Virus record (IMG/VR): IMGVR_UViG_3300032257_000007
Length of the DNA stretch: 20,000 nt
Direction: 5' to 3' (one strand)
Source of the DNA: an uncultured virus (IMG/VR IMGVR_UViG_3300032257_000007)
Taxonomy: Duplodnaviria; Heunggongvirae; Uroviricota; Caudoviricetes
Shown here: one piece after another, positions 5,288-20,000 of the stretch
How positions within the stretch are numbered: position 1 is the stretch's first letter
Layout: each line of letters opens with the position of its first letter
The notes under the pieces: model-generated
Database searches by the model: none
Told to the model about the DNA's origin: nothing
What the model saw: the letters and a program-made list of their open reading frames with translations, nothing else
Program-made: the position numbers and the translations under genes

Positions 5288-5305
5288 AGACACCTTACGG
5301 TGCCT
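5288..5305 (-). terminator. Stem-loop after ssb (AGGCACC-GTAA-GGTGTCT, GNRA loop); weak terminator or 3' stabiliser
   Basis: 7-bp stem with one G-U pair overlapping the ssb stop; poor U-tract. Confidence 0.45.
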
Positions 5306-5879
5306 AGAATGGAATTTCATCCTCATCGATGTCAATCTCTGGGATAGCAGATGCATCAGGCATTTGCTGTGCTGCAGCAGGTGCTTGCTGTTGTTGTTGC
5401 GGTGCACCTTGCTGTTGATTGGCTTGCTGGTTGCCATACTGCTGGTTGTTTTGCTGACCACCATATGATTGTTGTTGCTGGTTTCCATAAGACTGTTGGC
5501 TATTGTCATAACCACCTTGCCCTCCACCTTGACCAGCAGCTTTTGCTTCTGCATCAGCTTTTGAATCCATCATCTGCATTGTCTCAACGATAACAGTATG
5601 CTTTGAACGCTTGCTACCATCTTGAGCAACCCATTGGTCAAAATTCAATCTACCTTCAACAAGGATCTTGCTCCCACGTCTAAGGTACTGGTTTGCAACT
5701 TCTGCAGAACGACCAAAGAAAGTGATGTCAATAAAACATACTTCTTCTTTCTTTTCACCATTTTGAGTAAACTTACGACTAGTTGCGATTGCTGTGTTTG
5801 CAATAGCAGTTCCGCTCTGTGCATAACGCAGTTCGATATCACGAGTCAAGTTTCCTACAAGTACTACTTTGTTAAACAT
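5304..5879 (-). CDS. ssb: Single-stranded DNA-binding protein, bacterial (Campylobacterota-like) type
   Basis: MFNKVVLVGNLTRDIELRY OB fold, GSKILVEGRL, Q/G-rich linker, acidic tail IDIDEDEIPF. Confidence 0.97.
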   Translation of the reverse strand: MFNKVVLVGNLTRDIELRYAQSGTAIANTAIATSRKFTQNGEKKEEVCFIDITFFGRSAEVANQYLRRGSKILVEGRLNFDQWVAQDGSKRSKHTVIVETMQMMDSKADAEAKAAGQGGGQGGYDNSQQSYGNQQQQSYGGQQNNQQYGNQQANQQQGAPQQQQQAPAAAQQMPDASAIPEIDIDEDEIPF

Positions 5880-5913: not shown

Positions 5914-7386
5914 TTATAGGATAGGCATACTAACCTGTCCTGTTGTTTCTGTCGTAGGTATTATACCATCTTTTTCTTCATTTGCGGCACTAGAATCAAC
6001 ATTTTCTGAATATTCTGCGTCTATTGAGTCGTCTACATATTCTACTACTTCAGCAGGTATATAGTCATTCATAAACGATGCCGTAATTGCTTTAAATCCG
6101 AGTTCAACAGATCCAGTTGGACCATCTCTGTTTTTACCTATGATTGCCTCTGCGTGCTCCACCTCTGGACGATGATATTCACCATCCTTTTCAACATCCC
6201 ACTCTTTCTCACGATAGTATTCTTGTCTGTACAGGAATACAATCATGTCGGCATCTTGCTCAATTGAACCAGAACCTTGTAAGTCGGACATCATAGGTCT
6301 TTTGTTATCTCTGGTCTCAACAGATCTGTTTAGCTGAGATAATAAAACCACGGTGACTTTGAAGTTTTGGGATATCCTCTTCAGCATCTTAGTGATTTCA
6401 CCAAGTTCTGTAGGAGCATGTCCTTTTTCGTCAAGTCTCATCTGAAGAAGGTGATCTACAAGAATTGTTTTTATCAAAGGGTTGTTTTTTATCCTTTTGA
6501 TAATATCTATTTCTAGTTGCTTTCTTGTGAGACCACTTCTATCAATGATTTGGAATAGGTCGTCTGAATTCTCGAAAAATTCAAGAGTCTCATTAAATCC
6601 AGTTATGTTCTTAACTGCACCCATCTTCATCGATGACAACGGTTCTTGACACTTAAAAGATATCAATCTTGAGAGTGCATTTTTATCTGCAACCTCCATG
6701 GAATATAGAAGTGCCCCTTCGCCTCTTAGTATTGCAGAGATGATAGGACTACTCATAAAGCTCGATTTACCCATAGAAGGTCTGGCAGCAACTACTGTCA
6801 AACCATTTTCTACAAATCCACCAATCTTATTGTCAAAGTTGTAATACCCTGTTCTAAAGAATGGAGGCTTCTCTCCACTTGCTGCCTTGTCCATATCAGA
6901 ACGGATGTCAGCAGTAATATGTTCCATCTTCCTTGGCTCACCAACCGTCTTAATACCCATCTGCATAGCTTCGACTTTGTCCATGACATCAACAATAGCT
7001 TTACTGCTGTCATCTTCCGATGCAACAAGCTTCTTGATTTCAAAAGTCAGCTCCATCAATCTTCTTTTCTGAGCATAGTTCTTGACTACGTCCAAATAAG
7101 CTTTGACGTTAGATATTGGGTTTGACGATAGGATCTCAAGGATAACACGCTCACCATCGCTTATCTTTTTGGATAGCTCTGGTAAGATGAATGTTTCGTC
7201 CATCGGCTTTCCAGCTTCTTGTAACTCACCCATAATCTGAAAGATTGTCTGGTGTGCTGGTAGATAGAAGTCTTCTGCCGATAAACTCTCTGCAACTAAG
7301 TCGAACTGTTCGTTCTCAAAAATCACAGAGCTTATGATACTCCCTTCGACATTTATGTCAAAGAGTTTTAAATCGTCTTCATTCAT
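5914..7386 (-). CDS. dnaB: Replicative DNA helicase DnaB
   Basis: N-domain EDFYLPAHQTIF; Walker A AARPSMGKS; SMEV; ILVDHL; LSQLNR; SGSIEQDAD; KNRDGPTG. Confidence 0.96.
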   Translation of the reverse strand: MNEDDLKLFDINVEGSIISSVIFENEQFDLVAESLSAEDFYLPAHQTIFQIMGELQEAGKPMDETFILPELSKKISDGERVILEILSSNPISNVKAYLDVVKNYAQKRRLMELTFEIKKLVASEDDSSKAIVDVMDKVEAMQMGIKTVGEPRKMEHITADIRSDMDKAASGEKPPFFRTGYYNFDNKIGGFVENGLTVVAARPSMGKSSFMSSPIISAILRGEGALLYSMEVADKNALSRLISFKCQEPLSSMKMGAVKNITGFNETLEFFENSDDLFQIIDRSGLTRKQLEIDIIKRIKNNPLIKTILVDHLLQMRLDEKGHAPTELGEITKMLKRISQNFKVTVVLLSQLNRSVETRDNKRPMMSDLQGSGSIEQDADMIVFLYRQEYYREKEWDVEKDGEYHRPEVEHAEAIIGKNRDGPTGSVELGFKAITASFMNDYIPAEVVEYVDDSIDAEYSENVDSSAANEEKDGIIPTTETTGQVSMPIL

Positions 7387-12169: not shown

Positions 12170-12551
12170 TTTCTCCCTTGAAGAATTTAGTTAAGTCTTG
12201 AGCTCTAGCTAACAGCTCAGAAACCACTTTTGAATATCTTACAGCCATCATTGTGAATGGTTTTTGGAATGAAGATACTGGAACCTCTTTCCCATCTGTC
12301 ACTACAATGTGGTCTTCAGTAATATCCACTGCTCTTCCTCTGAATACGATAATGAAAGATACATATGAAATACCATCTTCTTTAATATCGAATGCCCATT
12401 TAGTTGCAGAAATCTTAACGAACCCGATGTCTTTAAGATCATGTATTACTCTAGATTTGGCTGAGAGATTATCTCTGTTGTCATTTGTGTATTTTTCTAA
12501 AGAGTGTGTCAGCTCTAACAATTCTCTCTTTAGCAACTCCGTGTCATTCAC
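12156..12551 (-). CDS. Hypothetical protein (131 aa)
   Basis: GTGA overlap with the NYN gene stop; SD AAGGAG. Confidence 0.8.
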   Translation of the reverse strand: MNDTELLKRELLELTHSLEKYTNDNRDNLSAKSRVIHDLKDIGFVKISATKWAFDIKEDGISYVSFIIVFRGRAVDITEDHIVVTDGKEVPVSSFQKPFTMMAVRYSKVVSELLARAQDLTKFFKGEIDEV

Positions 12552-13117
12552 GTAATCTCCTTCTCTATGTGCTTTATGTTTGGGTTGAATAGCTCATGTA
12601 AAGCAATACTTCTGAACTGCTTCAGATTGTTCGACATGTTTTCTTTGTGCGCTATCACGATGATCTCAGTCCCATAATGTTCCTGTACATACTTTAAAGC
12701 ATTAAGCATGTCGTCATCCCCACTCAGTATTATTAATCTTTGGTACTTAGAGCCTAAAGTATGTATTGCATGAATAATTTCTCCATCCATGTCACACTCT
12801 TCATATTCATATACCGTGCGTGTTCCCTTAATATCGATTATGTTATCAAGCTTCTTGACAATTTTCTCGACTACTTCAAACCCCTGCGATCTTAAGAAAT
12901 CCAAGAATCTGATGTTCTTCCCATATCTCTGATCATCTTTACTAAACGCTTTTGCAAACGCATGAAAGTTGAAATGCACATCTGGGAATGTTTTTAAAAT
13001 AAGTTCTTTTGCTAAAAGCATATCTACTTTTGGCAGAAGGTATTCGTTGCGTCTATGAGTGATTGGTGTTTTCAAATTTTCCATATCACACAAGACGAGC
13101 GTTCCTAGCTTATTCAT
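12548..13117 (-). CDS. NYN-domain (LabA/DUF88, PIN-like) putative ribonuclease, 189 aa
   Basis: Start moved to ATG 13117 (SD TAAGGA); motifs LCDMEN, ECDMD, ILSGDDDM, S..L. Confidence 0.82.
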   Translation of the reverse strand: MNKLGTLVLCDMENLKTPITHRRNEYLLPKVDMLLAKELILKTFPDVHFNFHAFAKAFSKDDQRYGKNIRFLDFLRSQGFEVVEKIVKKLDNIIDIKGTRTVYEYEECDMDGEIIHAIHTLGSKYQRLIILSGDDDMLNALKYVQEHYGTEIIVIAHKENMSNNLKQFRSIALHELFNPNIKHIEKEIT

Positions 13118-13208
13118 CGTCTGGTTCCTTAGATGCTCTTCCGAGCAAGAAACCAAAACCTATAATAGCTAAGAGTATTCCACCAATTACTGTGCCTATA
13201 CTCATCAT
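13110..13208 (-). CDS. 32 aa single-pass membrane peptide (not in ORF track)
   Basis: SD AAAGGA; MMSIGTVIGGILLAIIGFGFLLGRASKEPDDE*; overlaps the NYN start. Confidence 0.7.
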   Translation of the reverse strand: MMSIGTVIGGILLAIIGFGFLLGRASKEPDDE

Positions 13209-13354: not shown

Positions 13355-16027
13355 ATGAAAATAGAAGATTTTTGGAGTTTTTTACGGGAAAATAGCGATT
13401 TTTTCAGTAAAATGGCCACTTTTTCGTCAATTAAGATTGATTTTAAAAGAGGCATTTATTATATAGATGACGGTTGGATGGCAGATCCTTTCTTTTTAAT
13501 CCTAAGACTTTTTAGAGACAAATTTAATGAGCTTGGCCCATCTAATGACCAGGAGTTTACCCGAATACAGAAGATGTTAAATGCTTCTAGAATTAAGACC
13601 CCATTCGGTAAAAAAGAGTATGACTCTTATGTAAATGTCGAAACTCGAAACCAAACACTCCTTAACCTGCTAGAGGTGACTCTTGGTGCCAATGATGGCA
13701 AGTTTATGATCCCAACGAAAGAGTATTCCAATCAAAAGTTTAAGGATATCTCAAATGATATGGAGAACGTATTCTCAGGATTGTTTATTTATGAGCACCG
13801 AGAAGCACGGTATTATGTTGATATTTACGACAGACTGACTGGGTTTGAAGTATTCCTCGATAATGGAACAATCTATATACCAGTTAGGTTTGAGGGCATA
13901 CATCGGTCAGCGTTTAAAGAAGACTCACTTAGAAAAGTCGATATAGAGGGAGAGGTATCGATCTCAGATATGTCTTTCACATTATCCCTTGAGGATAGGG
14001 ATGCTGTCTATATCCCAGAAGAGTACACGGACAGCATTATTAACGTAGCAAGGTACTTCAGAGTATTTGATATAGTTAACGAGGATGACCAATTCATTCT
14101 TAATACAGCTGAGTCAATCTACAAGTATGCTTATGACGACCCTTCCATAAAAGCAAACGGGGTATTATTTACGAGCTACCTTGCCGATCTGATGATATCA
14201 AAATACACAGAGTCTGGCTCATCTTCAATTGCCGCTCTCATTGATATAGCAAGGGTTGCCTCTGCTATGACAAAAGTGCACAAGAGTGTGTTGATAGATA
14301 ACATCTCGAAAGATATTAGTGGTGAGGTCATAGAACTTGTTAAACCATACATAGATGGGTCGGATGATAATCATGTTGCTAAGATTAGCGAGCTTACAAT
14401 TAAGTCTAATCTTGAATTCTGCTCCAGGGTAATCAGACTCAATGGGGACCCAAGTTCAATTAGGTTCTTCAATAAGAAGATGAAGTATTACAAGGACTTT
14501 AATGTAGACAGAAATGGGGTTCTTAACGACCTTATTCCTGAGCTTGGTGGCTTCAGATACATAGCATCATTCTGTAATATTTCAAGTGACAACGTACCAG
14601 CTGGGTATACTTCAGTAGACTCTTTTATTATATACGCAATACTGAAAGTTGTTCAAAGTGAGTTCGGATCACTTCCTGTGTTTGATAGGTTCTATGGGGA
14701 TGGGATACATTCAATATTTGACAAGATTGTGTTTAACTCAAGTGATGGAGTGCACGGCCTTGATGGTAAGCATGGATACAATGGAGTCCTTTTACAGCCA
14801 GCTGATATAGATGTTAAAATTCCAAAGCTTAGAGCGACAAAGCAGTCAACCGAGTCAGCAATCTCTGAAATAGTTGATGCCTTTTCGGGGTTTGTATCTG
14901 GATCAGAGGACAGAGATATGCTTGCTGCAGTACTCACAGCATCCTCTTTAGTTGTGCCTATATTGAAGAATGCAAACAAACCAGTCATGGCTATCTATGG
15001 GTGCGGTCCGTACACTATGGATGGGGCAAAAAAGAAGATTTTTAATGGTGTGTTTAAGAACGCACATGTTGTTAATACAGACAGCGACTTTGTCATCAAG
15101 AATATAGCCGATGGAAGCAGTTGTATGCTTGTGACAACAATGAATAAGTCAATCAATAAGGTTCTAAACAAGCTTGCTACAGAGAGGTTTGGGTCAGAAA
15201 CTATAAGTAGGTTCAAAAACACGGATAATGTAGTAAAAACCACCAATACAGCCCCGATTTTGGTGTTTACAGAGGAAATGTGGCTTATAGATGAGTCGAT
15301 TGTGTTCAATTTTCCAGCTAGAGCAAGCAGTGAAGCGGGGTCCTTCTTGTATGAAGACGATGATGTGTCTGGAACTATTGCATCTTTCGTCATGAGCAAT
15401 GAGAAGAAGCTGCTTTCACTCGAAGAAAAGTTTGTTGCCAAGGTGAAAAAGGAGCTAAAGAAGAAAAAAATGACTTCAAAACACCCTTATGTTGACTTTT
15501 TTGAGAAGATTCTGGCTTCTATGTGTTTAGTTGAAGCAACAGGCTTCATGGATGGATGGGAATTCCACGATAAGATGCATTCTGTCTATTTCAATGATGA
15601 TAACATCAGATATTCTGTGAATTTTGAGAAATTAATACTCTCTATACAGAATGGTTCTTCAAAAGTTGAGGATAAGTTACACGACCAGAACTTAAGAATG
15701 AATCAAAACGGAGATTCTGTTGCTGTAGACAAGGTTTTTCACATGTCATACCTTGAGAAAGAAGAATCTGATGTATATGTACTTCTTTTTGACAAAAGAG
15801 TTGTGTACAAGGCTTTAAAAGCTGATTTAAACATAGGATATGTGGAATTTGTCCAAGCAATAGAAGCTCTTAAGTCGTATATAAACATAGAAAATGCAAT
15901 GAGAAACTACAGACTAGGGTCAGACAAGACAAAGACCATTTACAACTGGTATTTAGAATTATTTGATGGTGTAAAAGATGATTTTGGATGTATAAAAATA
16001 AACAAAAAGTCCTTTTATGGCCTTTAA
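13355..16027 (+). CDS. 890 aa protein, possible degenerate primase-helicase (Zn-ribbon/TOPRIM/DUF927-like remnants)
   Basis: Long ORF with SD GGAG. Remnant motifs SIKIDFKRGIYY...ADPFFLI, VYIPEEYTD, SSLVVPIL...PVMAIYGCG without GK[ST]. The CDS is secure; the function is tentative. Confidence 0.6.
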   Translation: MKIEDFWSFLRENSDFFSKMATFSSIKIDFKRGIYYIDDGWMADPFFLILRLFRDKFNELGPSNDQEFTRIQKMLNASRIKTPFGKKEYDSYVNVETRNQTLLNLLEVTLGANDGKFMIPTKEYSNQKFKDISNDMENVFSGLFIYEHREARYYVDIYDRLTGFEVFLDNGTIYIPVRFEGIHRSAFKEDSLRKVDIEGEVSISDMSFTLSLEDRDAVYIPEEYTDSIINVARYFRVFDIVNEDDQFILNTAESIYKYAYDDPSIKANGVLFTSYLADLMISKYTESGSSSIAALIDIARVASAMTKVHKSVLIDNISKDISGEVIELVKPYIDGSDDNHVAKISELTIKSNLEFCSRVIRLNGDPSSIRFFNKKMKYYKDFNVDRNGVLNDLIPELGGFRYIASFCNISSDNVPAGYTSVDSFIIYAILKVVQSEFGSLPVFDRFYGDGIHSIFDKIVFNSSDGVHGLDGKHGYNGVLLQPADIDVKIPKLRATKQSTESAISEIVDAFSGFVSGSEDRDMLAAVLTASSLVVPILKNANKPVMAIYGCGPYTMDGAKKKIFNGVFKNAHVVNTDSDFVIKNIADGSSCMLVTTMNKSINKVLNKLATERFGSETISRFKNTDNVVKTTNTAPILVFTEEMWLIDESIVFNFPARASSEAGSFLYEDDDVSGTIASFVMSNEKKLLSLEEKFVAKVKKELKKKKMTSKHPYVDFFEKILASMCLVEATGFMDGWEFHDKMHSVYFNDDNIRYSVNFEKLILSIQNGSSKVEDKLHDQNLRMNQNGDSVAVDKVFHMSYLEKEESDVYVLLFDKRVVYKALKADLNIGYVEFVQAIEALKSYINIENAMRNYRLGSDKTKTIYNWYLELFDGVKDDFGCIKINKKSFYGL

Positions 16028-16030
16028 CTG

Positions 16031-16060
16031 TTGACTTTTGAAGGATTGTAACAGTATAAT
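16031..16060 (+). promoter_or_regulatory. Sigma70-type promoter TTGACT-18 nt-TATAAT
   Basis: Near-consensus boxes in the intergenic gap, followed by a small 5' hairpin AGCTC-AATCAC-GAGCT (16070-16085) and SD AGGAG. Confidence 0.7.
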
Positions 16061-16119: not shown

Positions 16120-16323
16120 ATGGGTAAAGATTACTCTAATATGTCAACCGAACAAATCATGGAAGAAGTTATTTCAATCTTCAAAGAAGTTGAAAATGAC
16201 TGGGAAAAGCTTAAAGATCGTCAAAATGCTGCGGCAGGACGTCGTATTCGTAAATCACTTGACGAGGTTGCTCGTATCAAGGTAGACTTACGTAAAGTAA
16301 TGTTGGCTGAAGAACGCTCATGA
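16120..16323 (+). CDS. Hc1/histone-H1-like small helical protein (67 aa)
   Basis: QNAAAGRRIRKSLDEV.......RK matches the GNKAAGxRxRKxxxEL pattern of the Hc1-like family. Confidence 0.7.
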   Translation: MGKDYSNMSTEQIMEEVISIFKEVENDWEKLKDRQNAAAGRRIRKSLDEVARIKVDLRKVMLAEERS

Positions 16324-17024
16324 AAGCAATGTTTGTAGCCCCAGACTTAGCTGTCTTGGCTCAAATGCTTTCCGCCTCAACAAGTAAAGAAAAACTTGTT
16401 GAGAACATGAAAGCTTTAGTTGAGAGCGATAATTACGAAGACAGACTTAAAGCAATTACTGAAAATCCGTCTAACTTAAGATTCTCGTGGATCAAGTTTG
16501 ACAAAAACGAAGAAAATTTGGAGTTCTTTACATCTTTATTGTTGCTTTCTGCTAACAATAACTATTCAACGTCTACAAAAGACCTGGTTATGACTCAAGA
16601 CTGTACATTTGTTAACAGCAATCTTCTTGACGCTTATAAGCAGGTTTCTCAAGGCGAAGATGCTAATATTGATCTTGACCTGACAGACAAGATTAATAAA
16701 GACAGACTTATGTCGTTATGTGAAGACATGTTTGATGAGCCGCAATTCGTAGAGTTATTCTCTACTGAAAATGGACCTCAGATGTTTATGCTAGCTGGAA
16801 ACTTTTGTGTGGATACATGGGGAATGTTGTCTACAATCGGTACAGTTTCTCAGAGAAGCTATGCTCTTTCTACTGGAGATGGTAAAGAGAAAGTTCCTGG
16901 TATCTGTGTGATGTTTGGTTTGTCTATGACAACACTTCTTCATATTGAAGCTAACGCTGAAAAGATGCCTAAGCATATTGAAGAGGATTTAAAATCTCTT
17001 CCGAAAGCGCAGGAGCCTAAGTAG
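16320..17024 (+). CDS. Hypothetical protein (234 aa)
   Basis: ATGA overlap with the upstream gene; TAG overlaps the next GTG. Confidence 0.85.
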   Translation: MKAMFVAPDLAVLAQMLSASTSKEKLVENMKALVESDNYEDRLKAITENPSNLRFSWIKFDKNEENLEFFTSLLLLSANNNYSTSTKDLVMTQDCTFVNSNLLDAYKQVSQGEDANIDLDLTDKINKDRLMSLCEDMFDEPQFVELFSTENGPQMFMLAGNFCVDTWGMLSTIGTVSQRSYALSTGDGKEKVPGICVMFGLSMTTLLHIEANAEKMPKHIEEDLKSLPKAQEPK

Positions 17025-17449
17025 TGAGAAATCTTAGCTTCTTCGTCATCACTCAAACTAAAGAACAGTACCCTCATGTACTTGCCTCTTCGTTTGAGAG
17101 AGGAATGATATATCCTTATCCTCATGCTTATATTTACAAGATGGATGAATCGGATGAAGAGTATACTTTTGTGAGAATGAGACCATTGCACGAAAGATGT
17201 GCCACTGTTAGAGACTCAAGGTTGAATAACAACGGCATAGGGATAGTCCTTTATAATCCTACTGGCAATCCTCTTACGGAGAAAGCTAAGAAGCTCATTG
17301 CTACTGTGATCAGAAACTTCGTTGATGATTTTGGTATAATTCAGTACCAGATTGTAACGGATGAATCTTCTGCCGATGCATTCGTGGATACACTCGATTT
17401 CCCTGCGATGGTAGATGCGTCTCCATCAGCTTTTACGAAAAGGACTTAA
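17024..17449 (+). CDS. Amidase_2/T7-lysozyme-fold protein, predicted catalytically inactive (141 aa)
   Basis: GTG start, SD AGGAG. FFVITQT, YPHAYI, RMRP, NNNGIGIVL, PLTEKAKKLIATVI...DFGI follow amidase_2 motifs in order; Zn ligands absent. Confidence 0.65.
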   Translation: MRNLSFFVITQTKEQYPHVLASSFERGMIYPYPHAYIYKMDESDEEYTFVRMRPLHERCATVRDSRLNNNGIGIVLYNPTGNPLTEKAKKLIATVIRNFVDDFGIIQYQIVTDESSADAFVDTLDFPAMVDASPSAFTKRT

Positions 17450-17451
17450 CA

Positions 17452-17664
17452 ATGGTAATTCTAGTTAAAGATCAAAATGGAACAGAAAAAGCTCTTAGAC
17501 TTGGAGACTTATCTTGGAGAGCGACAGAACTTTCTAATGATAATTCAAAAGTTGAATTAAGCATAGACCCTGATATTGTAGTTGTTATTGACAAACTACA
17601 GTACGAATCAATCAAAGATAGACTTTCAGCATCTGGTGAAATTTTAGATCTTACTACCTTCTAA
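17452..17664 (+). CDS. Hypothetical protein (70 aa), small beta-rich domain with a C-terminal helix
   Basis: SD AAGGA; lies in operon just before the RNAP gene. Confidence 0.8.
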   Translation: MVILVKDQNGTEKALRLGDLSWRATELSNDNSKVELSIDPDIVVVIDKLQYESIKDRLSASGEILDLTTF

Positions 17665-17674
17665 ATCAATAATA

Positions 17675-17713
17675 TGCTAAAATACGCAAAACAACATAAA
17701 GGTTTTTGCGTAT
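17675..17713 (+). promoter_or_regulatory. Extended -10 promoter (TGCTAAAAT, 17675-17683) overlapping a hairpin that sequesters the RNAP start codon
   Basis: ATACGCAAAA (17682-17691) is the perfect reverse complement of TTTTGCGTAT (17704-17713); SD-like AAAGGT in the loop; the AT of the ATG is in the stem. Confidence 0.65.
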
Positions 17714-20000
17714 GGCAACCTTCAGAAAACTTAATAGAAATCATAAAGAAACAGACCAAGCTGTAAAGAACAAGATACTATCTGCGGTAGCATCGGTATT
17801 TCCTATCGAAGGAAACATGTTCAGACTAGAGGCTTCTAACTTTCAAATCAAAGAATCAGACTCATCGTTAAGTGACGTTAAAAGTGCTCTAGTAAAGGGT
17901 TCTTCAATAATGTCTAGCATCAGTGCAAACCTTGTGCTTATTGATAAACAGTCAGGTAAGCGAGTCGATTCTAAGACAAGATCTATTATGAGAGTTCCTG
18001 ACTTTACAAGCAAAGGTTCTTTTGTAGTTGAGGGTAACTCATACACTATCCCATATCAGCAGAGACTTAGACCTGGTGTCTATACTATGAAGAAAAGAAA
18101 TGGAGAGATTAACTCCATGTTTAACCTTGGTAAAGGTAGAAACTTCAACATTAAGATAGATAAGAGTGGTATCTTCAGAATTAAAATAGGTTCATCTCAT
18201 GTTTCTTTATATTCAATCCTTAAAGACCTTGGAGAGTCTCCATCTGCTATGGAAGCTATTTGGGGTAAAGAACTGTTCCAGCTCAACTCAAAGACGTACT
18301 CAACAACAGACTCAGCTAAATTTCTAAAAGCATTTAAATACTCTACTGATGACTTGCCAGAGAACACAGACGTAAGAAAAGAACTTACTGATGCTATCTC
18401 TCAGTCTACAGTAAACAAGAATGTTATGATCCATACGGTTGGTGTAGATAAAGAGACAATTGATTCATCTGTAATCCTTGCTGCCTCTAAGAGACTTCTT
18501 GGAGTGTATAAAGGAACTGAGGACCAGGACGACAGAGAGAATATGATGTTCAAACAAGTTATGGCACCAGAAGATATGGTGTCAGAAGCATTTGTTAAGA
18601 ACTCAAGAGAAGAACTTAATAAGCTTAAATTCAAACTAAATAACCCAGACATGTCGAAGGTTGATGATGTGTTTGGATCAAGCACTTCTGCTTTGACTAG
18701 ACCGATCAAAAATTTCTTGACAAGTTCTAAAGCTACAAGACTTGGAGAAGAGTATAATCCTCTTATGATGCATACAACTGGACACTTCATCACTCCGATG
18801 GGAGAAGGTGGTGTCGGTGATGACAGAGCGCTTAATCTTGACACTAAAGCAGTCCATGCGAGTCACTTTGGGTTTATTGATCCGCTAGTATCACCAGAGG
18901 GTTCTAAAGTCGGTGTTACTCTTGCCGTTACTGGTAACTCATATGTAGATGAAACTGGTGCTCCTGCAATTGGTGTATTGAATGCTAAGACAGGAAAGAA
19001 AGAGATTGTAACTGTTGCCGAGTTATGGGATAAGAATGTAGCGTATCCTATTTCAAAAGAAAGAATCAAGTCCGATGGGATTATGGTTCGTAGAGGTAAT
19101 GAGGACTTTAAGGCGAAGACGAAAAAAGATGTTGACTATATCATTGAGAAGCCTTCAGATATGCATGCTCCTTCAAGCAATATGGTTCCTCTTATTAACT
19201 CATCTGATGCGAATAGAACGAATATGGCTCAAAAGCATTTACAGCAAGCTCTATCAATTAAAACAAGGGAGAAGCCACATGTTTCAGTTGGACACGATGG
19301 CAAGGATTTTGCCGCAGTTGTTTCTTCTGAGTCTGGTCATTTACCTCATGCATCAATGGCTGGTGAAGTTACGAAAATAGACGACAAGTTCATCTATATT
19401 AAGGGTGAAAAAGGGCAAGAGAAAGTTGACTATGTGCAAAACATGCCTCTTGCAAGAAAGACTTTTATTGACCATAAGCTTCTAGTCAAAGTTGGGGATA
19501 AGGTTAAAAAAGGTCAAGCCTTAGCAGACTCTAACTTTACCAAAGACGGGCACATGGCTCTTGGTAAAAATGTAAGAACCGCATGGCTTTCAATGCCAGG
19601 TAATAGAAATGATGGGATTATTATTTCTGAATCAGCATCTGAGCAGTTTACTTCTGAGCACATGTATAAAGAGAACGTGCATATCAATGCAAGTGAATCT
19701 CTTGACATGAAAAAGTTTAACAACTTATTCCCAAGTGTAGTATCTAAGTGGGGTGGTTCAAACTATGACACTCACGGTGTGATAAAGAAAGGGACAAAGC
19801 TTACCAAAGGACAACCTCTTGTATTTAAGCTTGCTAAGACAGATGCTAGACAAATCAAGACTAAGCTAGAGAAAGTTATGCATAAACCTTTTAAAGCTGT
19901 TGTATCTACATGGCACCACCAAGATCCAGGTGAGGTTATTGATATTGAGAGAGGTGCATCTGAAATCAGAATCACTGTCAAGGTTGAAAGTAAAGCCAAG
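17712..20000 (+). CDS. rpoB: Phage-type multisubunit RNA polymerase beta subunit (RpoB-like), partial, at least 763 aa (not in ORF track)
   Basis: Translated by hand with no stop to the window end. Motifs GSFVVEG...QQRLRPGVY, DDREN, NPL...MGEGG, VHASHFGFIDPLVSPEGSKVG, VPLINSSDANRTNMAQKHLQQA, VKVGDKVKKGQALAD, MALGKNV...NDGIIISE. Confidence 0.95.
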   Translation, partial: MATFRKLNRNHKETDQAVKNKILSAVASVFPIEGNMFRLEASNFQIKESDSSLSDVKSALVKGSSIMSSISANLVLIDKQSGKRVDSKTRSIMRVPDFTSKGSFVVEGNSYTIPYQQRLRPGVYTMKKRNGEINSMFNLGKGRNFNIKIDKSGIFRIKIGSSHVSLYSILKDLGESPSAMEAIWGKELFQLNSKTYSTTDSAKFLKAFKYSTDDLPENTDVRKELTDAISQSTVNKNVMIHTVGVDKETIDSSVILAASKRLLGVYKGTEDQDDRENMMFKQVMAPEDMVSEAFVKNSREELNKLKFKLNNPDMSKVDDVFGSSTSALTRPIKNFLTSSKATRLGEEYNPLMMHTTGHFITPMGEGGVGDDRALNLDTKAVHASHFGFIDPLVSPEGSKVGVTLAVTGNSYVDETGAPAIGVLNAKTGKKEIVTVAELWDKNVAYPISKERIKSDGIMVRRGNEDFKAKTKKDVDYIIEKPSDMHAPSSNMVPLINSSDANRTNMAQKHLQQALSIKTREKPHVSVGHDGKDFAAVVSSESGHLPHASMAGEVTKIDDKFIYIKGEKGQEKVDYVQNMPLARKTFIDHKLLVKVGDKVKKGQALADSNFTKDGHMALGKNVRTAWLSMPGNRNDGIIISESASEQFTSEHMYKENVHINASESLDMKKFNNLFPSVVSKWGGSNYDTHGVIKKGTKLTKGQPLVFKLAKTDARQIKTKLEKVMHKPFKAVVSTWHHQDPGEVIDIERGASEIRITVKVESKAK

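Follow-up and report, generated by a model that had tools for sequence, protein, structure and literature searches.

The gene considered here lies at the downstream end of a 20,000-nucleotide stretch of DNA from an uncultured tailed virus (IMG/VR record IMGVR_UViG_3300032257_000007; Caudoviricetes), which was analysed over its whole length and is referred to below as the window. It is read on the plus strand and encodes an RNA polymerase (RNAP) beta subunit fused to the front half of beta-prime; of its 1445 codons, the first 763 (the 5' 53%) lie in the window, free of stops up to the edge. The gene starts with the ATG at 17712, the TTG at 17706 given in the list of open reading frames (ORFs) being in the same frame two codons upstream, and an AAGG shortly ahead of it may be its ribosome-binding site. 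A sequence-only reading of the window had reported this frame, open to the window edge, as a compact and divergent beta subunit of a phage polymerase. The frame is confirmed, its translation being identical in every letter to residues 1-763 of a 1445-amino-acid (aa) database protein, P0002, which is encoded on a 134-kb contig and was found among longer proteins at 100% identity to the window frame. The 3' half of the gene is also present as DNA on a metagenome contig, L177, which is 100% identical to residues 772-1445 and carries a further 5.8 kb of downstream sequence.

A beta chain fused to the front half of beta-prime

Within the window part of the protein, two Pfam domains of beta exceed their cut-offs: Rpb2 domain 3 at residues 349-409 (22.3 bits, cut-off 21) and, after it, Rpb2 domain 6 at residues 582-749 (42.5 bits, cut-off 23.4). 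This is the canonical order in which the sequence-only reading had placed its RpoB motifs, and on full-length P0002 the score of Rpb2_6 rises to 138.4 bits. The best match among the PHROGs is to an unnamed family, phrog_24349 (E 4.4e-37), with weak matches to two families named 'RNA polymerase beta subunit', phrog_3295 (E 4.4e-11) and phrog_18919 (E 6.7e-5). The gene product is 23-32% identical to cellular RpoB, in agreement with the low similarity claimed for it. The window ends inside the beta part, about two residues ahead of the GDK...GNKG active-centre lysine motif; as that reading had anticipated, VGDKLSARQGNKG begins at residue 764-765 of P0002, directly beyond the window edge.

Downstream of beta, P0002 shows a weak match to Rpb1 domain 1 at residues 1093-1176, followed by Rpb1 domain 2 (PF00623) at residues 1305-1374 (46.5 bits, cut-off 25.3). 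The three Mg-binding aspartates lie in a DYDGD motif at residues 1353-1357, which is aligned to the NADFDGD segment of solved beta-prime, and the protein ends 88 residues past this motif. D1353, D1355, D1357, K767 and K775 do not vary among 20 members of the family. A profile of these 20 members was compared with solved RNAP chains. It matched solved bacterial beta with a best E of 1.5e-125, its positions 19-984 being colinear with residues 27-1060 of 8gzg_C (E 1e-122), and it matched solved beta-prime over residues about 161-560 (E about 1e-80). The beta part amounts to about 985 aa, where the listed solved beta chains of bacteria and plastids have 1070-1383 aa, so that 'compact' was a correct description.

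P0002 has no cysteine among its 1445 residues, and cysteine is likewise missing from P0003, P0006, P0011, P0015 and P0016, five other members of its subclade, and from P0023. Bacterial beta-prime carries a four-cysteine zinc finger at its N-terminal end; in a chain devoid of cysteine this finger cannot be present. In the gene product, a whole beta of about 985 aa that lacks lineage-specific inserts is continued directly by the N-terminal half of beta-prime, and with both on one chain the two catalytic barrels (GDK...GNKG and DYDGD) are brought together. The sequence-only reading had proposed that GDK...GNKG and a beta-prime Mg site be looked for downstream, and both are there, fused in one frame. 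Its view of an unsplit enzyme with intact beta and beta-prime is borne out for beta only, as the beta-prime part is limited to the N-terminal portion and is cut 88 residues after DYDGD; this layout was misjudged since the gene runs on past the window edge.

The phage family and the separate C-terminal half of beta-prime

The remainder of beta-prime was traced in relatives using a hidden Markov model (HMM) built from 13 one-chain relatives and run on the ORFs of 80 IMG/VR loci encoding relatives. This C-terminal part (beta-prime-C) stands in the same frame as beta in 49 of the 80 loci, giving chains of 1808-3033 aa, and forms a separate downstream ORF in 18; it is not within the locus in 12, some of which are cut by contig ends, and runs off the locus end in one. 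None was found in the flanks fetched for L083 (65% identity) and L082 (49%), the closest relatives in IMG/VR. The whole record of L082 (G001; 76 kb, 47% complete) encodes a 588-591-aa ORF with Rpb1_5 (E 2.9e-25) on the strand opposite the fusion gene and about 25 kb away from it. Aligned to the one-chain protein P0020, P0002 takes up residues 12-1461 and this ORF residues 1466-2034; on a second one-chain protein, P0022, the P0002 match ends at 1476 and the match of the ORF begins at 1481. As the two proteins abut on one-chain relatives, they are complementary halves and not duplicates. The ORF has six cysteines, and a C...C..C cluster in the consensus of the beta-prime-C alignment is taken to be a second zinc site. 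By analogy with these relatives, the genome of the window phage would hold, at another place, a gene of its own for a beta-prime-C of about 590 aa. An 890-aa ORF upstream in the window was considered as the absent beta-prime-C and rejected, as it shows no similarity to it.

Among 1.84 billion cluster representatives (50% identity), searched exhaustively, 950 reached E<=1e-30, and the best 150 of these all belong to the fused-polymerase family. In a rough census of these 150, 62 were one-chain forms, 48 consisted of beta and beta-prime-N, 8 ended soon after beta, 10 were fragments and 22 were unclassified. The eight 'beta alone' forms were rejected as free beta subunits, since their consensus continues into the start of beta-prime, which makes them further-split or truncated forms. 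At least 369 relatives of the fused polymerase are present in IMG/VR, where a scan with the window protein as single query gave no match. The window's own subclade is represented by only about three full-length 50%-identity clusters among the 1.84 billion representatives. The contigs of the window phage's largest relatives reach about 180-200 kb. Intein or homing-endonuclease domains (PF14528, PF14890, PF05204) interrupt many members of the family, and the match to Vibrio phages D181 and D148 falls into two pieces with an annotated homing endonuclease under it.

The relationship of the family to cellular enzymes was examined in a tree obtained by a quick IQ-TREE search under LG+C20 (55 rows, 982 columns, without archaeal or eukaryotic outgroup). 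The 36 phage rows, including Salmonella phage Arash and Vibrio phage D69, are split from 18 bacterial RpoB with support 100; the bacterial RpoB form a support-100 group of their own on the opposite side from the phage rows, with Cobetia phage Carin-5 on that side. Helicobacter, Aliarcobacter and P0100 make up a Campylobacterota group within the bacteria, beside Pseudomonadota and Desulfobacterales. The window protein is one of nine rows in a subclade (support 100, with a stem of 0.97 changes per column) that stands apart from the Arash/D69 group. With an HMM of the family's beta part, phage members score 790-1570 bits (Arash 913, D69 881) and whole cellular beta ORFs 290-420 bits (Helicobacter 388, Aliarcobacter 372). 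A scan of species genomes with the family alignment found only cellular rpoBC operons, at 23-32% identity. The gene product is a phage multisubunit-type RNAP outside cellular RpoB, that of Campylobacterota included, as the sequence-only reading had it, and represents a distinct subclade of a known, poorly described kind of phage enzyme. The beta of Carin-5 scores 232 bits with the same HMM and sits on a very long branch, so that its place is uncertain. This cultured marine phage (L167 4077-10902) has a layout unlike that of the window: after a sigma-factor gene come two distinct polymerase genes, for proteins of 1083 and 927 aa, each bearing the annotation beta, and the protein of 927 aa is the beta homologue.

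Gene neighbourhood, host and use of the enzyme

The features of the region are collected in Table 1. Four tightly packed, co-directional ORFs (16120..17664) lie directly 5' of the polymerase gene and probably form one transcription unit with it. In L083, the Hc1-like, 234-aa and 141-aa ORFs are found in the same order at 39-48% identity. The 890-aa ORF that opens the plus-strand block is 42% identical over its full length to a syntenic ORF of L083; its atlas leads (DUF927, Toprim and Prim-Pol clusters) all fall below the naming bar, and it is possibly a primase-helicase. Neither rplJ/rplL nor any other ribosomal-protein gene was detected 5' of the polymerase gene with Pfam and PHROGs, the ORFs upstream being those of 890, 67 (Hc1-like), 234, 141 and 70 aa, and the earlier statement on this point holds. 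The sigma-70-like match in the gap before the Hc1-like ORF is treated as a lead only to a promoter, since the 18 such matches in the region are not above chance (shuffle mean 15.7). Further upstream, the minus strand encodes SSB, DnaB, a replication initiator, RecT and an exonuclease (PHROGs). On L177, the DNA downstream of the gene also encodes an HNH-like endonuclease. RecA follows the polymerase gene, the window already encodes a RecT/exonuclease pair, and the polymerase gene is flanked by two small DNA-binding proteins, of Hc1 type upstream and HU-like downstream.

Table 1. Features of the window and of the overlapping contig L177 (positions are those of the window unless L177 is given).
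Feature	Position	Strand	Basis or remark
RNAP beta/beta-prime-N fusion gene, first 763 codons	17712..20000	+	no stop; residues 1-763 of P0002; Pfam
AAGG, resembling a ribosome-binding site	17699..17702	+	nine bases 5' of the ATG at 17712; read from the sequence
70-aa ORF	17452-17664	+	ORF list
141-aa ORF	17024-17449	+	weak Amidase_2, E 0.0059, below cut-off
234-aa ORF	16320-17024	+	ORF list
Hc1-like 67-aa ORF	16120-16323	+	PF07432, E 7.2e-8
Sigma-70-like promoter match, TTGACT-18 nt-TATAAT	16031..16060	+	11/12; gap before the Hc1-like ORF
890-aa ORF	13355-16027	+	opens the plus-strand block; no Pfam or PHROG family
202-aa ORF, NYN ribonuclease-type domain	12548-13156	-	PF01936, E 5.8e-9; heads the replication/recombination block
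DnaB-like replicative helicase	5914..7386	-	phrog_19, E 1.9e-82
SSB gene, Campylobacterota type	5304..5879	-	phrog_44, E 3.8e-41
RecA	L177 2095-3096	+	directly after the polymerase gene; PF00154, E 6.6e-98, plus RecA C-terminal domain
HU-like protein	L177 4729-5082	+	PF00216, E 5.4e-11

A microbial mat metagenome is the only run with most of the stretch, and may be the source itself. Gene kinship points to the host. The window SSB was matched at E<=1e-30 in all 121 sampled Campylobacterota genomes, with best full-length identities of 63-71%, as compared with 3 of 201 Pseudomonadota genomes (best 42%); single genomes of four other groups gave 27-38%, and a Bacteroidota genome gave no match. The 5' part of ssb reaches up to 77% nucleotide identity to Campylobacterota over about 340 bases. 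This proximity to Campylobacterota and distance from other phyla suggests an exchange of genes with the host lineage at a fairly recent date. Below its phage relatives, DnaB has four organism-named matches, all of them Campylobacterota at 36-39% identity (an Epsilonproteobacteria metagenome-assembled genome, Sulfurimonas, Sulfurovum and Hydrogenimonas). RecA on L177 is 56-57% identical to that of three Campylobacterota genomes as compared with 51% for one Pseudomonadota and one Desulfobacterales genome; at E<=1e-125 it matched none of the 121 Campylobacterota and none of the 201 Pseudomonadota genomes, a threshold too strict to inform. When the DNA of the 20-kb window was compared with 401 Campylobacterota genomes, 254 were matched; the 150 matches listed, with 215 others outside the listing, reflect ssb homology, with one of dnaB, and no short near-perfect match resembling a CRISPR spacer is among them. 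Together, the kinship of the SSB, DnaB and RecA genes supports the Campylobacterota host proposed in the sequence-only reading, probably a member of this phylum living in microbial or sulfur mats.

We consider it highly probable that the window carries the start of a beta/beta-prime-N fusion gene whose product, together with a separate beta-prime-C, makes up a two-chain, alpha-less core enzyme in a mat phage that probably infects Campylobacterota. In such an enzyme, the beta-prime-C chain of about 590 aa, with Rpb1 domain 5 and the second zinc site, would dock on the fusion chain. The bridge helix, trigger loop and jaw are expected in the C-terminal half of beta-prime and would be supplied by this partner. 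No homologue of alpha (PF01000) was found in five related records, two of them at least 90% complete and complete Arash among them, while the control was positive in 14 of 14 genomes; the covalent link between beta and beta-prime may stand in for the platform that alpha provides. Sigma-70 region 2 (PF04542) is present in three of the five records. By analogy with Arash, the fused enzyme is probably the only RNA polymerase of the window phage, which would transcribe its genes independently of the host enzyme, probably with a phage sigma-like factor, and which perhaps carries the polymerase in its virion. Among the listed homologues, eight (P0033, P0062, P0063, P0076, P0088, P0097, P0108 and P0080) have further domains fused to the polymerase, PF01551 in seven of them and PF01476 plus PF18013 in one. 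We take these to be an M23 peptidase (a cell-wall hydrolase), LysM and a phage lysozyme domain, respectively. Fused cell-wall domains of this kind would fit a polymerase that is ejected from the virion through the cell wall.

Several observations weigh against one or another part of this proposal. The beta-prime-C HMM has no match in the 17.7 kb of the window upstream of the gene or in the 5.8 kb that follow it on L177. PF04542 was not found in G001 (47% complete) or in G611, a complete record with the one-chain form. The tree comes from a quick search in which the cellular rows are all bacterial. Packaging in the virion is weakly based for the window phage, being carried over from Arash at 28% identity; the polymerase gene has replication and recombination genes for neighbours, unlike that of Arash, which adjoins a portal gene, and a host-type promoter match stands ahead of the operon. 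As to the host, the RecA margin is small and comes from three genomes against two, a phage-type polymerase was absent at E<=1e-150 from all 301 Campylobacterota genomes searched, and no CRISPR or prophage link was found in searches of Campylobacterota genomes, so that the assignment is one of gene similarity.

Alternative explanations and known systems

Taken alone, the window shows beta domains only, as would be expected from a free-standing, unsplit beta accompanied by a separate, intact beta-prime. This arrangement is on record for the mReC phages, where beta (COG0085) and beta-prime (COG0086) are assigned to different, mostly adjacent genes in 22 table rows of the accessible part of the survey (PMC7481178). 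It is nonetheless very improbable here, as the frame of P0002 stays open through domains 1 and 2 of beta-prime before ending 88 residues after DYDGD, and relatives encode the remainder of beta-prime in a gene of its own. A polymerase of the phiKZ/AR9 jumbo-phage type, in which beta and beta-prime are each divided among several polypeptides, is given even less weight. The weak matches to phrog_3295 and phrog_18919 would agree with it, as would the failure to find alpha in relatives, but the best PHROG by far is the unnamed phrog_24349, and where the available text on that group (PMC7598289) describes four or five pieces, the window gene has an intact beta fused to beta-prime-N, an arrangement of the opposite kind. 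The frame might also belong to a cellular rpoB, either on a fragment of a host chromosome or recently captured by a mobile element of Campylobacterota. The species-genome match ranked highest is indeed Helicobacter rodentium, and the window SSB is clearly Campylobacterota-like. That rank, however, reflects one long match at 27% identity, and Helicobacter comes first because its own beta and beta-prime are fused in a 2908-aa ORF, not through kinship with the phage gene. Campylobacterota RpoB groups with that of other bacteria and is separated from the phage clade by a branch of support 100, which refutes a cellular rpoB; Helicobacter and Aliarcobacter score no higher with the family HMM than other phyla, and the genes around the frame are phage-type. 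This last explanation can be practically dismissed.

A more serious alternative concerns the use of the same enzyme rather than its identity. The polymerase may not be packaged but synthesized early by the host polymerase from a host-type promoter, and then used for middle and late transcription. The position of the gene within the replication/recombination block and the 11/12 sigma-70-like match ahead of the operon both speak for such use, and we regard it as quite possible, if somewhat short of an even chance. On the other side, the promoter match is no more than chance would give in the region, some homologues carry the presumed cell-wall-hydrolase domains, and in Arash, the only relative with virion proteomics, both chains are reported among the most abundant virion proteins (PMC10585845, text available in part). 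A fuller version, in which a rare, deep subclade with mat Campylobacterota hosts, a cysteine-free fusion, a partner gene tens of kb away, and a replication-module position behind a host-type promoter all go with a host-launched, non-virion use, seems to us rather unlikely as a whole.

The two-chain fusion enzyme of a mat phage that we favour belongs to a family that is very large and almost undescribed. Its members are natural one-chain and two-chain core enzymes without alpha, which makes them useful for questions of polymerase assembly and evolution, and they also inform how large phages gain independence from host transcription. The window adds to this family a distinct subclade and, probably, a new host phylum, Campylobacterota. 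If the host assignment is right, it would be the first host link for the enzyme family beyond the cultured Salmonella and Vibrio phages; if the replication-module layout means what it may mean, an enzyme that a cultured relative packages would here be host-launched and kept out of the virion. A literature search (subscription journals not included) found no statement that beta is fused to beta-prime-N or to whole beta-prime in these phages, and no paper on phage multisubunit polymerases for Campylobacterota.

Among cellular enzymes, that of Helicobacter resembles the window protein in having beta joined to beta-prime in one frame, as in the 2908-aa ORF of H. rodentium (L002 8612-17335, plus strand) and in P0100 (2886 aa), which has all beta and beta-prime Pfam domains. 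It differs in being an ordinary enzyme of the cell that keeps every insert and has a complete beta-prime; it falls on the cellular side of the tree, and the Helicobacter and phage fusions are independent. Cyanobacteria and plastids share with the window family a beta-prime split into an N-terminal chain with the Mg site (gamma) and a C-terminal chain, and the phage chain is matched by the solved gamma chains 8h3v_E and 8syi_D, of 624-625 aa. In the phage, beta-prime is cut about 70 residues before the point where gamma ends, position 638 of 674 of the query corresponding to about 518 of 624 in gamma, and the phage beta-prime-N, unlike gamma, is fused to beta. The phiKZ/AR9 enzymes are likewise phage relatives of beta and beta-prime without a recognisable alpha, with both virion and non-virion forms known according to the accessible text (PMC7598289). 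Whereas those enzymes consist of four or five polypeptides, that of the window has a whole beta, is joined at the beta/beta-prime border and has one cut inside beta-prime.

The sequence-only reading had assigned the polymerase to a deep-branching lineage with intact subunits. This layout is not supported; the published mReC contigs differ, beta and beta-prime being on separate genes in the table rows available, and the nearest described enzyme is of the Arash type. In the sections of the mReC study available (Weinheimer and Aylward 2020; PMC7481178), 97 phage contigs are reported whose beta and beta-prime form a clade distinct from the cellular subunits. The likeness to the window extends to large metagenomic tailed phages with beta/beta-prime homologues distinct from cellular ones, the window too having phage-type genes around the frame and a beta split from bacterial RpoB in the tree. 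In the same sections the word 'fused' is used only for crAssphage. None of the 80 IMG/VR loci corresponded in metagenome id and length to a listed mReC contig, 80 of the 97 contigs being compared. The capsids of mReC phages are described there as matching PF07068, of the T4 Gp23 type; this family was not found in the five relatives' records, complete Arash included, in a search that was silent in the controls too. Several mReC contigs carry two beta/beta-prime sets, such as _92/_94 and _130/_132 of one 277-kb contig, which hints at two polymerases per genome. A mat virus at the base of mReC has been described, in the part of the paper available (PMC10159854), with one 'beta and beta prime' gene and a second, 'non-homologous' RNAP fragment, which its authors regarded as redundant and read as relaxing selection on the first. 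In the fused-polymerase family, such a second RNAP gene is the complementary half.

The closest comparison is with Salmonella phage Arash (OQ632216; PMC10585845), the closest cultured relative by tblastn (colinear, 28% identity over 98% of the query, E 6e-85), followed by D181, D148 and D69; the hosts of these cultured phages are Salmonella and, by name, Vibrio. Arash encodes Gp206 (1525 aa) and Gp216 (606 aa), the latter being the C-terminal part of beta-prime by HMM, and unannotated equivalents of both are found in Vibrio phages D69, D148 and D181. The accessible text of the Arash paper names the chains simply beta and beta-prime and reports that, in virions, Gp206 gave the most spectra of all proteins, with Gp216 and the sigma factor Gp10 also present (PMC10585845); among enzymes in the virion, Gp206 and Gp216 are the most abundant. 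The window enzyme belongs to the same phage clade and shares the same layout, a fusion chain of about 1450-1530 aa with a separate beta-prime-C of about 600 aa, so that fusion plus split is not in itself new. The differences lie in the subclade and in the genomic context. In Arash, Gp206 (annotated as beta) comes after the portal gene and Gp216 lies 4.8 kb downstream; taking Arash and D69 together, the polymerase gene comes directly after the portal gene or, in D69, after its unannotated counterpart, and beta-prime-C is 1-7 kb downstream. In the window phage, the fusion gene stands among replication genes, with its partner not within 5.8 kb and, in the closest relative where it could be located, 25 kb away.

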